Assembly (NCBI GenBank): GCA_964016885.1
Contig: CAXHJY010001433.1
Location: forward strand, 1-64,000
From: Eledone cirrhosa
Taxonomy: Eukaryota
Length of the DNA: 64,000 nucleotides
Reading direction: 5' to 3'
The notes under the pieces were generated by a model. The model was not told the DNA's origin, ran no database searches, and worked only from the letters and a program-made list of their open reading frames with translations. Positions 1,955-56,848 of the stretch are shown here, one piece after another (positions within the stretch are counted from its first letter, which is position 1; the number at the start of each line of letters is the position of its first letter). The translations under genes and the position numbers were made by a program.

Positions 1955-2149
1955 AACAAAGGAAATGTGGTAAGGAACCAGATGGACCATAACGCACCAG
2001 AGTACTCAATACTTAGGGTAGTAGAGTGGGAAATAGGAAAAAGTATGACCCCGACGGCAGAGCTCAAGCCGTTTCGACGGCTATTTCTGGACCAGAAATA
2101 GCCGTCGAAACGGCTTGAGCTCTGCCGTCGGGGGTCATACTTTTTCCTA
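1955..2149 (-). mobile_element. Family A mini fold-back in (TA)n
   Basis: Inverted arms of about 57 bp around CTGGACCAG; about 80 bp tail on the left arm only; (TA)n on both flanks. Confidence 0.85.
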
Positions 2150-5100
2150 TATATATATATATACATATATATAATATATATATATATATATATATATATA
2201 TATATATATATATATATATATATATATATATAATATATATATATATATATATATATATATATATATATATATATATATATATATATAATATATATATATA
2301 AAGCGAGAAAAATAGACATTGAAAAGTATAAATATATATGTACACATATTATATTGTTTACAGCTTGTGGTTACTCATGTAATATTATGATTGTGTATTT
2401 CGAAGATATATAGGTGACCATATTGAAGAGAAAGCCCGTGTATTGATCTAATGGCTATAAACGTTATTTCTAAGCAGAGAATATATATTTGTGGTTAAAT
2501 GTGGAAAAGAGAAAAAGTAGAGAACATAGCATTTTTATATCTTTATATCTATATAAATTTATGTTGTATTTTCATATATATATTTTCTTTGATTTCTTTG
2601 ATATATATGTGTGTATATATGTATATATATATATTAGAATTGTTGCTCTGAATATATACATTCATATATATATATATATATATATATATAGATATATATA
2701 TAAATATATAAAATTTATATTTTTATGCGTTAGTGTGATTGTGCGTGTTTTAGTTTGTTGTTTGTATATGTTTACAATTGCGTGCTTGTGTTATGTATAG
2801 CTGGGGTTACATGTGTGTTAGTGTGGCTATGTGTTTGTTTGTGTGTGTGTATGTATGTGTGTGTGATTGTGTGGTATGTGTATGTGGGGGGTGTAGGGAG
2901 GGGTCTCCAATATGATACCCTATATCATTTCACTATAGTCTCTCAATCTCAGTCAGATTCCCTATTTTTCTTTCTTTCAATCAATCACCTTCTCTCTCTC
3001 TCTCTCTCTCTCTATATATATATATATATATATATATATATATATATATATATCTTTCTCTCTCTCTCTCTCTCTCTCTCTCCTTTTTTCTCTCGCACTT
3101 ACACTTACCATTTCGCTACAATCATCCGTATGTCTACAAATATATTTATACGTATATATATATATATATATATATATATATATATATATATATATATATA
3201 TATATATATATATATATATATATATATATATATATAAATATATATATATATAAATATATATATATATATATATATATGTACACACACACAAATATATATG
3301 TGTGTATGTAGTTGTGTATGTACATTTATACATGTAGTATCTCTATGAATATACACAAATGAATATGCACAAATGAATGTATGTATATATGTTTACAAAT
3401 ATATATATATCATAAATATTATATGTATATATATATATATATATATATATATATATATATATACATATATAAATATATATACATATATAAACATACATAT
3501 ATATATATATATATATACATATATATATATATATATATATATATATATATATATATAAACACATATACACACACGTATATACAGCGTTCGCTATACCAGT
3601 AAGTATTACTACAACATGATTTTTCTTTATGCTTTGTGCGTGTGAATACATATCTATTGGTTTGTTTGCAGTTTATATTCTGAGCAGTCACATGTTGGTT
3701 TAATGGGGGAACGTCTTTCATGTTTCGTTTAAGGGGCTACATCTCAATTTTAGATCTTCACTTTTTTTTTTTTCGTGTAGCTAACATTCCGTTTACCTTT
3801 TGTATATCGCGTCTTTAATGTTCTATTCTATATATGGGGTTGGTTTTTCTTTAAACATATTTCCTTATTTCCTGTTGATCTTTGTCTTTTTTGCTTTTCT
3901 TCTTCAATGTACACTCCCAATAGTAATATTGGTTAAATGTATGAAAATATAACGCATGCGCAGATACCGAGTATATATATGTATATATATATATATATAT
4001 ATATGTATATATAAGTATGTTTGTACTGTGGCCTTTGCTTTGTTACTGGTGTTTGTCTTTTTCATATATATGTGTGTGTGAGTGTGCGTGTATATATATA
4101 TAATGTGTTATATGTCAATGACATAAAACTCTATGTATATCTATATATATCTACATCTATATATATATATATATATACATATATATATATATATATATAT
4201 ATATATATATATATATATATATATATATATATATATATATATATATATATATATATATATATATGTGTGTGTGTGTGTGTGTATATATATGTATATATGT
4301 ATATATGTATATATATATATACATATATATATATATATATATATATATATGTATATGTATATACATATATATATGTACATAAAGCACGTATATAGTTGTG
4401 GAAACTTACAAATTTGTTTCATTCATCTTTTGAATACTTCAATGCATAAGTATATGGGATGTATATATGTGTGTATATATAAATATATATAATGTATACA
4501 TATAATACTTCATATATATGTATATATATATATATATATATATATATATATATATATATATATATATATATATATACGTATAATAATTGTATATATATAA
4601 TATATATATATTAACGTGGAGATACCATTTTATAACATAACATGGTTCGACTCATTTTATATTTCCCTGCTAAACTGTTGTTTGTGATACACTGCATACA
4701 TTTTTATGTGTGCATTTTTTTTAAATATTTATGTGTGTATATTATGTATACACACACATGTATATATATATATATATATATATATATATATATATATATA
4801 TATATATATATATATATATATATATATATATATGTGTATAAATATATATATATATGAAAAAAAAAATATATATATATATAACATATGAAAAAATATATTT
4901 TATATACATATGTAAATATATATATATATATGTGTGTGTGTGTGTGTGTGTGTGTGTGTGTGTGTGTGTGTGTTGTCCAGTGTTTGTGTCTTTGTTCCTC
5001 TGTTCATCAACACAGAAAATGCAACAAAATTGCGCGCCTACTCTATTTTATAATGGCGCTGATAGTGGTGATGATGGTGATGGTGGTGGTGGTGGTGATG

Positions 5101-5322
5101 ATGACGATGATGGTGATGTTGGTGGTGGTGATGATGATAATGATGATGGTGACGATAGATTATGACAATGCTTGGTGATTGTGGTTGTGGCGATGATGAT
5201 GATCACCATCATCAGCATTACTATCATCATCATCATCATCATCATCATAATATGTATCGCATCATTTCATAGAAGTTGATAATGTTAAATATATGGCGCA
5301 AAAAAACAACAAAGTAGAAAAG

Positions 5323-6125
5323 TAATAATAATAATAATAATAATAATAATAATAATAATAATAAGAAGAAGAAGAAGAAGAAGAAGAAGAAGAAGAAGAA
5401 GAAGAAGAAGAAGAAGAAGAAGAAGAAGAAGAAGAAGAAGAAGAATGAGGAGAAGGAAAAGAAGGAGGAGTTGGAGGAGGAGGAGGAGGAGGAGGAGGAG
5501 GAGGAGGAGGAGGAGGAGGAGGAGGAGGAGGAGGAGGAGGAGGAGAAGGACAAGAAGAAGGAGAAGAAGGCGAAGAAGGCGAAGGAAAAGAAGAAGAAGA
5601 AGAAGAAGAAGAAGAAGAAGAAGAAGAAGAAGAAGAAGAAGCAGGAGAAGCAGGAGAAGAATGAAAAGAAGAAGAAGAAGAAGAAGAAGAAGAAGAAGAA
5701 GAAGACGAAGAAGCAGGAGAAGAATGAAAAAAAGAAGAAGAAGAAGAAGAAGAAGAAGAAGAAGAAGAAGAAGAAGAAGAAGAAGAAGAAGAAGAAGAAG
5801 CAGGAGGAGTATGAAAAGAAGAAGAAGAAGAAGAAGAAGAAGAAGAAGAAGAAGAAGAAGAAGAAGAAGAAGAAGAAGGAAAAGAGGCAGAAGGAGGAGG
5901 ATGAGAAGAACAAGAAGAAAGAGAAGAAAGCGAAGGAGAAGGAGAGGAAGAAGAAGAAGAAGAAGAAGAAGAAGAAGAAGAAGAAGAAGAAGAAGAAGAA
6001 GAAGAAGAAGAAGAAGAAGAAGAAGAAGAAGAAGAAGCAGGAGAAGAAGAAGAAGCAGGAGAAGAAGGAAAAGAAGAAGAAGAAGCAGGAGAAGAAGGAA
6101 AAGCAGAAGAAGAAGAAGGAGAAGA
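5323..6125. repeat. Compound (AAT)n-(AAG)n-(GAG)n microsatellite
   Basis: Direct reading of the sequence; gives the spurious poly-K/R/L/F ORFs. Confidence 0.95.
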
Positions 6126-7301
6126 TGAATCATGCCGCTGCGTCTCCTTTTTTTGCTGTTATTCTTGGAATTCACATGTTGCTTCTCTCATTGCAGGGAA
6201 GATGGCCTTTAGAGATTTAAAGACTCCCCTAGAGATCTATTTTTTCATATACACAACAGAATAACTTCATACATATTTGTATACATATATATATATGTAC
6301 GTGTGTGTATGCGTGCGTGTGTAGATGTATGCGTCATTGTGTGTCTATACGGATGTATGCATCTATATATATATATATATATATATATATATATATATAT
6401 ATACACACACATACACGCACTCACACAGACACCGAAACACACACATACCTACACATATATATGTGTATATATATATATATATATATATATATATATATAT
6501 ATACATATACAAACACACTCACACAGACAGAGAAACATACACACACACACATACACATATATATGTATATGTATATATATATGTATAGGTATATATATAT
6601 ATATGTGTGTGTGTGTGTCTGTCTGAATAGGTATATATATATATATATATATGTGTGTGTGTATAGGTATATATATATATATATATATATATACACATAT
6701 ATATATATATATGTATATATATATATATATATATATATATATATATATATATATATATATATATATATATATATATATATATATATATATAAATATATAT
6801 ACCAAAATTCGAATGAAATACATATGTGTATACACACACACACACATATATATATATATATATATATATATATATATATATATATACATATACATGTACC
6901 TCTGTGTGTGTTTGTATCTGTCTGTCTGAGTATGTGCCATGTTTTTTTTATTGAAGCCGTAATGCTGTTCTATACGATGGTTTCACTATTGTAATATGAG
7001 TACGGTTGCAGTATTTGTTTCAACAAACCTTCACTGAAACAAACATCTAATATCAAGACCCATATGAAACACTGGAACGATATTTGGTATCAATATGTAT
7101 GCAAAATATAAATAGAAACAACAAAGAAAACAACACTGTACAATAAAGAAATATAATAGTTCAACGCTTGACATAGTAGGAAAAGGGTCTATATATTTCG
7201 GATACTATTCCTTTATCAGAAGATAAAAAGATAAAAAATAAAAGTTGAAATCAACAATAGAGAGTGAAAGGAGGAAAAAATACAAAAGAATTATTGAATG
7301 T

Positions 7302-55569: not shown

Positions 55570-55733
55570 ACTGTTTCTACATTTGGCACAAGGCCAGCAA
55601 TTACGCAGTGCATTACTGGTACTTTATTTTATCGACCCCGTAAGGATGAACGGCAAAGTTAAACTCGGCGGGATTTGAACTCAGACCGTAAAGGGACGTA
55701 ACTATGCTGGAAAGCTTGGCGACCGATACTGTC
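55570..55733 (-). mobile_element. SINE S1
   Basis: Homologous to 8123-8310. Confidence 0.85.
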
Positions 55734-56062
55734 AAATAAAATTTACTGTTATAAGTAGATAGAAAAATAAATAAATAAAGAAAGAAAGAAATAGATAAAT
55801 GGATAAATAGATAAATGAATTAATAGATGGGTGTTATAGATAATTGTTTTAATGAGTTATATATATATATTAATATATATATATATATATATATTAATAT
55901 ATAACCTTATATATTATATATCGGTTTACTTTCCAATAATATATTTGTATATAAGTGTGTATGTACATATATATATATATATATATATATAAGTGTACAC
56001 ACACACACACATATATATATATATATATATATATATATACATGTATATATATATATATATAT

Positions 56063-56283
56063 AGGAACGATCGACTTTTCGTCAAATCGGACCGAGGGAA
56101 GAATGTTTCCGTTGGTCTTTCCAATTGCTAATACTATCTATCGGTCGCAACTCCAGGTAGAAGGAGCAACGTGAAATAAAGTGTCTTGCTCAAGGACATA
56201 ACGCATCGCCTGGTCCAAGAATCGAACTCACAACCTTACGATTGCGAATCCAATTCTCTAACCACTTAGCCACACGCCTTCAC
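56063..56283 (-). mobile_element. Family I SINE flanked by (TA)n on both sides
   Basis: Same ends as 53013-53232. Confidence 0.8.
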
Positions 56284-56532
56284 TATATATACATATATAT
56301 ATATATATACATATATACATATATGTATATATATATATATATAATTATATATATATACACATATATATTTATGCATATATATAAATATATAAATATATCT
56401 ATCTATATATATATATATATATATATATATATATATATATATATATATATATATATATATATATATATATATATATATATATATATATATATATATATAT
56501 ATATATATATATATATATATATATATATATAT

Positions 56533-56848
56533 ATTAATAAGAGGAATTCCAACTTTGTCTGATTTACTCGTTTTATTTACAATCCTTTAAAATTCATAAT
56601 GGTATTATAATGAAATAGTATGATAGAATATTAAATTCTAAGTGTTATTATGAACCTGAAGATTGCGAAAGCATGAAAGTACTTGTTCAATTAACACTTA
56701 GAATTTAATATTCTATCATACTATTTCATTATAATATCATTATAAATTTTAAAGGATTGTAAATAAAACGAGTAAATCAGACAAAGTTGGAATTCCTCTT
56801 ATTAATATAATCTTCTATACACAATCATACACACCCGTGTATATTTAT
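56533..56848 (+). mobile_element. Family C fold-back with an HHR at 56651-56689
   Basis: The short arm stops before the HHR; the long arm starts exactly at stem I TGAAC and carries the tail. Confidence 0.9.

Follow-up and report, generated by a model that had tools for sequence, protein, structure and literature searches.

The first 64,000 nt of contig CAXHJY010001433.1 from Eledone cirrhosa (assembly GCA_964016885.1; this whole stretch is hereafter the window) contain lopsided hairpins lying within (TA)n repeats. These hairpins are real, which confirms an earlier observation made from the sequence alone (hereafter the original prediction), and they are very likely truncated copies of Penelope-like retroelements (PLEs) of several families. 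The reading we favour, at a probability of roughly 0.55, is that a single RNA was copied from two fixed starts, with a trailing reverse transcriptase (RT) displacing the leading complementary DNA (cDNA).

Fourteen hairpins with both ends defined by homology were found, belonging to five families (A, seven; B, three; C, two; J and P, one each). All are head-to-head pairs of 5′-truncated arms, and all 14 combine one tailed with one untailed arm. The long arm passes the inner TA site into a tail of 40-99 nt, whilst the other arm halts at a fixed internal TA. Tail lengths, each taken from a single long arm, were 77 nt in A, 56 in B, 40 in C, 99 in J and 69 in P. Were the end of each arm chosen independently, 14 mixed pairs out of 14 would have a probability of at most 0.5^14 = 6e-5.

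Family A comprises hairpins A1 (1956-2147), A2 (16537-16729), A3 (28412-28595), A4 (32977-33441), A5 (36386-36565), A6 (43078-43269) and A7 (53741-53943), and its coordinates were numbered on a tailed 317-nt solo copy (60870-61186, plus strand; inner stop 61108-61110, tail 61111-61186). In 7/7 hairpins the short arm ends CCTA(T) at reference positions 239-241 and is followed by TA repeat, and in 7/7 the long arm ends at reference position 317. The tailed arm of A1 is inverted at the left, with the short arm ending CCTA at the right, whilst the short arm of A2 lies at the left. The short arm ends in ACAATAT in all three family B hairpins (B1, 28260-28394; B2, 49781-50251; B3, 54891-55075), in TTATTA in both family C hairpins (C1, 14473-14885; C2, 56535-56848), one of which continues for 3 nt in TA phase, and in GAATAATAT in the single J hairpin (52664-53000). 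A J-like hairpin is clipped by the window start (1-218, plus strand); its sense arm ends at a site matching the J inner site and its other arm falls outside the window. The original prediction had described these fixed short-arm ends for A, B, C and J, together with read-through of the long arm into a tail at the same TA site, and both descriptions held in every hairpin.

It had also described the central junction as variable. Junctions do differ between the 14 copies compared, with 1-7 nt of overlap in five, blunt joints in four and 1-14 extra nt in five; they are, however, not random, as six of the seven family A centres fall at reference positions 172-197, which is the 3′ strand of the long stem. 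In 5/14 hairpins it is the short arm that extends further 5′, by 4-30 nt (19 nt in A2, 30 nt in A4), so the two arms of these hairpins are not nested within each other.

Once microsatellites had been masked, a census of the window yielded 20 inverted repeats, 15 of them head-to-head with both flanks inside. None of these 15 was two-tailed or two-short-ended, and in 13 the short arm lay no more than 7 nt from a TA run. The other two were the D hairpin (14156-14340), an asymmetric but weaker case with its short arm 17 nt away from a TA run, and the single-copy R hairpin (34137-34246), in which one arm abuts (GA)n and the tail is undefinable. The other five census entries were set aside: 13-90 leaves the window, 30047-30264 has TA runs enclosed by its arms, and those at 41960, 60633 and 60853 are short palindromes. 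Hairpin B2 was absent from the census and was detected separately. Copies are flanked by (TA)n on both sides in a window that is AT-rich, with 49% masked as simple or tandem repeat and 18% in TA tracts. All copies in the window are 5′-truncated and none is full-length. Two pairs of hairpins from different families, at 28260-28595 and 32977-33590, each share a TA run with 16-17 nt between them, as if inserted into each other's flanks; the first pair is B1 and A3, separated by 17 nt of (TA)n.

Family P, absent from the original prediction, is linked to a PLE gene. The P hairpin (33457-33590) obeys the one-tail asymmetry of A, B, C and J, and the family is the 3′ end of a gene at 58653-60632 (minus strand), a 5′-truncated and frameshifted copy with its 3′ region that ends at the inner TA site between TA repeats on both sides. 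Read across three frames, this open reading frame (ORF) specifies an RT with YRDD, a CxCx5C linker, a GIY-YIG-type endonuclease and CxxC...CxH. At E<=0.001, 125 homologues of the RT piece were found (top identity 56%), with lengths of ~700 aa. In 120 homologues examined, YRDD was present in 119, CxCx5C in 87, CxxC/CxH in 97, D[KR]T in 100 and RWK in 84; the RWK and DKT region lies outside the truncated window copy, so these last two counts (84/120 and 100/120) concern homologues only. Family P thus appears to carry the motifs of the Hydra clade, an assignment made by motifs rather than by RT phylogeny. That clade is defined by these motifs in section 11 of PMC8557442, where nearly all of its families are described as inserting in (TA)n; the paper also lists octopus Naiad and Hydra PLE families, including Hydra-1_Obim. 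The family P tail beyond 58651 was present in 1,995 and 2,305 raw reads of two samples, and read depth over the gene drops steeply from 3′ to 5′, as expected of target-primed 5′-truncated copies.

Raw reads also bear on the hairpins themselves. Reads from 4 of 8 runs were aligned to 58636-61194 of the window; X6 and X7 are separate samples of restriction-site-associated DNA sequencing (RAD-seq), in which reads begin at enzyme sites, and 2,076 further rows exist beyond those listed. The inner stop of family A was seen as a switch to (TA)n at 61110 in 2,472 (X6) and 2,064 (X7) reads, and read-through as clipping at 61157 with continuation in the tail in 4,430 (X6) and 4,167 (X7) reads. Contigs of X1 clipped at 61100-61101 give the inner stop again, and tailed family A is also found in a few contigs of X5, a second species label. 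At least 10 opposite-strand joints outside microsatellites each occur in both X6 and X7 (15 joints listed, 112 further). As two other samples show both the stop and the tail read-through of family A in their raw reads, the hairpins are not an assembly artefact. The ratio of tailed to short reads was rejected as a copy ratio, given that RAD-seq reads begin at enzyme sites. Three read joints at 61106, considered as a tailed arm halting at the inner site, were dropped, since in the reference copy this position comes after a cluster of mismatches.

How might such a structure arise? In L1 twin priming, two target strands prime two cDNAs, which are joined into an inversion. In the reading we favour, one RT-endonuclease complex would nick a (TA)n target on both strands, and two cDNAs would be primed at two fixed sites on one RNA. 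The inner primer would anneal by 2-5 nt of TA microhomology and copy the RNA toward its 5′ end, and the outer primer would start 40-99 nt further 3′ and copy the tail. The outer RT could then stop, leaving a non-duplicated inversion like that of L1 twin priming, or could trail and displace the first cDNA, in which case the same RNA would be copied twice. Both RTs would stall or fall off near one place, which in family A would mostly be the entry to the long hammerhead-like stem, and the cDNA ends would be end-joined, with 0-7 nt of overlap or short fillers, and filled in to leave a one-tailed head-to-head hairpin. We infer the displacement, the asymmetry of the dimer and the joining step.

Several features lead us to favour one RNA, among them shared subfamily variants, coupled arm lengths, non-nested arms, tail-only inversions and TA runs at the inner site. 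In family A, the arms of one hairpin differ by 7.5% compared with 13.4% between hairpins (36 columns; 2 of 5,040 pairings were as good). The family A arms show 0-6 differences per 36 columns, and longer paired arms (A, B, C, J) match at between 97 of 110 and 111 of 113 positions. Arm lengths, compiled by hand, are correlated (rho 0.76, p 0.002; within-family permutation p 0.009). Inversion without duplication is seen in a diverged A-like insertion (14016-14105, ends approximate), which joins a CCTAT-ending short arm to an inverted piece of the tail only, and in a read joint at 61050-61119 present in X6, X7 and X1; such tail-only inversions are the L1-type outcome on one RNA. Two-strand priming and inversion are common to L1 twin priming and the favoured reading, and non-duplicated inversions occur here too; what differs is that the inner start is fixed and the body usually duplicated. 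The TA match that the original prediction placed at the inner site is present in 5/5 families, as alternating TA runs of 3 nt in A, 4 in B, 5 in C, 4 in J and 2 in P. Between 5 and 32% of positions per arm qualify as such a run, giving a product of ~3e-5 that was calculated post hoc. Folding of the five long arms revealed no common structure at the inner site. Elongation of the (TA)n tract by the RT on the inner-primed side was also considered but was unsupported (tract longer on the short side in 9/15, median 49 vs 19 nt, Wilcoxon p 0.11; p 0.73 for perfect runs).

Two templates or a tandem or circular RNA, which the original prediction took to be implied, are not required: a single RNA with a trailing, strand-displacing second RT would give the observed product. 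This also fits best, in that it would explain the shared variants, the coupled lengths and the non-duplicated inversions. More tentatively, and with some doubt on our part, asymmetric double priming may be obligate in (TA)n-targeting PLEs, a dimer loading two nicked strands on two fixed starts of one RNA, the inner via TA microhomology, with the trailing RT displacing cDNA. If true, this would explain the PLE tail, inverted pseudo-long terminal repeats (pLTRs) and microsatellite targeting in one step, and hairpins of 50-200 nt would be direct records of single events.

Several observations weigh against these interpretations. The sample is small (n = 14 hairpins from a single 64-kb window), and the existence of solo copies is contrary to strict one-of-each pairing. 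Among the rows listed, tail depth at 61157 in X6 was 10,227 vs 2,472 TA-stop reads; with tail depth so far above the TA-stop count, strict 1:1 pairing is not established genome-wide, although RAD bias and unlisted rows cloud the ratio. The arms are very unequal in 5 of 6 displayed inversion joints of the ORF family, so length coupling is not general, although symmetric joints would likely be lost from a two-enzyme library, and both the coupling and the similarity of arms could come from later palindrome trimming or conversion. Strand displacement is known for the R2 RT and not for a PLE RT. A Pfam search with the RT piece returned 0 families, and tblastn of the window found PLE protein only at 58.9-60.6 kb; parent ORFs for A, B, C and J are absent from the window, and thus the PLE status of these four families rests on anatomy and hammerhead motifs. 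In A and P the descriptor search described below found no hammerhead, and Rfam, run on family A, gave no hammerhead and one chance match. Lastly, in the anole PLE PAc (Poseidon of Anolis), as described in PMC11167929, the start is not homologous to the target and the start sites did not differ between strands.

It is also conceivable, though unlikely, that two RNAs were used, as in the two-template reading of the original prediction, each subunit of a PLE dimer copying its own RNA and the inner start serving one subunit, the outer start the other. This would make the displacement step unnecessary and would accommodate the 5/14 hairpins in which the short arm extends 4-30 nt further 5′ and neither arm lies inside the other; moreover, a dimer is predicted for PAc and both strands are extended in vitro (PMC11167929). 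Two RNAs do not, however, force one tail in 14/14 hairpins, shared variants or coupled lengths, unless the RNAs came from the same locus and the dimer was asymmetric.

The non-nested arms tell against fold-back, in which the 3′ end of a tailed cDNA snaps back and copies itself, the second arm being joined to the target at the inner TA by microhomology or endonuclease cleavage. Self-priming of this kind has been proposed for PLE palindromes in PMC3846280, and it would account for the single tail, shared variants, coupled lengths and near-palindromic centres. Nevertheless, it predicts a short arm inside the tailed arm, which is broken in 5/14 unless later deletions removed the centres. Copies that lack an inverted arm, namely the PLE gene at 58653 and a B solo near 20390, use the inner site as well, and inverted pieces of the tail only occur. 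Non-nested arms and use of the inner site without an inverted arm argue against a simple fold-back, and we regard it as improbable.

Hammerhead motifs raise a further possibility. Using a descriptor, which registers a sequence motif only, canonical-core minimal hammerheads gave 7 matches in the window vs 1 in 30 shuffles and covered B, C and J-like copies. Cores lie at 50028 (minus strand) in the long arm of B2, at 14740 in C1, where stem III is palindromic, at 56656 in C2, at 52871 (minus) and 52896 (plus) in the arms of the J hairpin, and at 113 in the clipped J-like hairpin. Inspection by eye suggested a hammerhead-like fold in family A with a non-canonical core, CUGAGAA, departing at G8, the whole of which is contained in the long arms of A4, and a defective hammerhead-like motif in family P. 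Rfam searches of the whole window gave no hammerhead among 150 of 417 matches listed, all being microRNA-type or other weak matches below gathering scores. A tandem or circular RNA made by hammerheads could have served as a template in which the sequence was met twice; the motifs in B, C and J are in keeping with this, circular PLE templates have been proposed (PMC4209133) and retrozyme circles exist in molluscs (PMC7229834). Such a template predicts head-to-tail repeats rather than head-to-head arms with two starts, and a tandem unit was found in 0/14 hairpins. In addition, the 5′ ends of family A arms lie upstream of the putative cleavage site, and ribozyme cleavage was dispensable in vitro according to PMC11167929, leaving this explanation very unlikely.

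Largely refuted are an assembly artefact, suggested by the poor assembly of palindromes beside long (TA)n and by read evidence that consists of ends and joints rather than spans of whole hairpins, but contradicted by private differences between arms and by raw reads from two further samples, which show both end classes and shared strand-switch joints, and miniature inverted-repeat transposable element (MITE)-like DNA elements, whose equal terminal inverted repeats are not seen here, the outer ends differing by 40-99 nt, the centres being variable and family P belonging to an RT gene.

Other hammerhead-bearing repeats were observed in the window. One further family (54386-54523, 45340-45395 and 35837-35900; canonical core at 54397) has one copy that halts at an inner TA site, the others being tailed, and its tail has a short TATTGAGTAC word in common with the family A tail. 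Two J-like solos with minimal hammerheads (33600-33740 and 55215-55360) again show two ends without a hairpin, one ending early at a TA site and the other ~30 nt further on. A repeat family at 52516-52626 and 47199-47296 has a U3-A8 variant of a hammerhead-like core at 52534. At 49930-50130 (minus strand), the upstream part of the long B arm appears by eye to hold the close of a reading frame that continues into the hammerhead motif, and could lead to a B parent.

The remaining repeats are of other kinds. Inverted repeats at 12435-13404, 22745-22954 and 30047-30264 enclose TA-rich interiors and differ in geometry, being MITE-like or two inward-facing ends. A GC-rich palindrome of 55 nt (60853-60907) sits where the solo A copy has its 5′ end, and no long inverted arm matches it. 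A dispersed family of ~200 nt, which we take to be a short interspersed element (SINE)-like repeat, occurs without hairpins as 12 segments (7295-7726, 8108-8318, 24011-24221, 31878-32068, 44044-44242, 47707-48299, 50934-51133 and 55564-55726), and a second dispersed pair is at 53014-53232 and 56064-56283. Long minisatellite arrays occupy about 24450-28000, 17050-17800 and 38200-39600; their units, judged by eye, are approximately 25, 45 and 130 nt.

The asymmetry and the double priming are known in substance. The asymmetry, which the original prediction described as rule-like, is not a new rule: PMC8557442 describes inverted truncated PLE copies, often with a tail at one end only, and (TA)n targets, and PMC3846280 describes a tail on one inverted pLTR in a head-to-head arrangement. 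The former states that the origin of PLE tandem and inverted repeats and of microsatellite targeting is unresolved, and later insertion steps are called unvalidated in PMC11167929. Strict one-of-each pairing, inner-site TA microhomology of 2-5 nt, coupled arms, a model of single-RNA twin priming and microsatellite expansion by PLEs were not found in the literature searched; the 2004-2006 Penelope tail papers and the PAc supplements may state part of this. Short hairpins marked by subfamily would allow the one-RNA, two-RNA and fold-back models to be separated by genome counting, and they make a prediction for a two-template assay.

The hairpins most closely recall endonuclease-containing (EN+) PLEs as these are described in PMC8557442, PMC3846280 and PMC8969392, with which they share 5′ truncation, an inverted head-to-head truncated copy, a tail often at one end, palindromic or microhomology junctions and AT-rich or (TA)n targets. 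They differ in having tails of 40-99 nt vs the 30-40 described, in that most window copies are reduced to the terminal 50-200 nt, and in one tail per hairpin in 14/14 cases vs 'often' in those descriptions. Compared with Hydra-clade PLEs in PMC8557442, family P is alike in its C-terminal GIY-YIG-type endonuclease, CxCx5C linker, CxxC, CxH and (TA)n target, and by eye in the layout of its hammerhead-like motif. Its hammerhead-like sequence is unlike the one listed for Hydra-1_oBim in the supplement to that paper, and neither the 12-nt P motif nor the A, B and C motifs were found in the available text of the supplement.

In vitro work on PAc (2024) provides the nearest mechanistic parallel, and the proposal in the original prediction that both target strands prime cDNA at two fixed sites agrees with it. 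As set out in PMC11167929, both strands are cut and extended, and two RT start sites, both internal, bound the tail, features that the hairpins appear to share together with an AT-rich target. The original prediction proposed the RNA 3′ end as the outer site. Unlike in PAc, TA microhomology is present at the inner site in the window, and no hairpin has both arms starting at the same site. According to PMC4209133, PLE pLTRs contain minimal hammerheads, in opposite-strand pairs 100-700 bp apart. Metazoan non-LTR retrozymes, described in PMC7229834 as short type I hammerhead repeats in head-to-tail tandem arrays and possibly PLE-mobilised, resemble the families reported here in being short hammerhead-bearing repeats, whereas the copies in the window are single head-to-head pairs with a tail, or solos, and not head-to-tail tandem monomers. 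As this anatomy is already known, the hairpins do not represent a new kind of element, but a clean, high-copy case of a familiar one.

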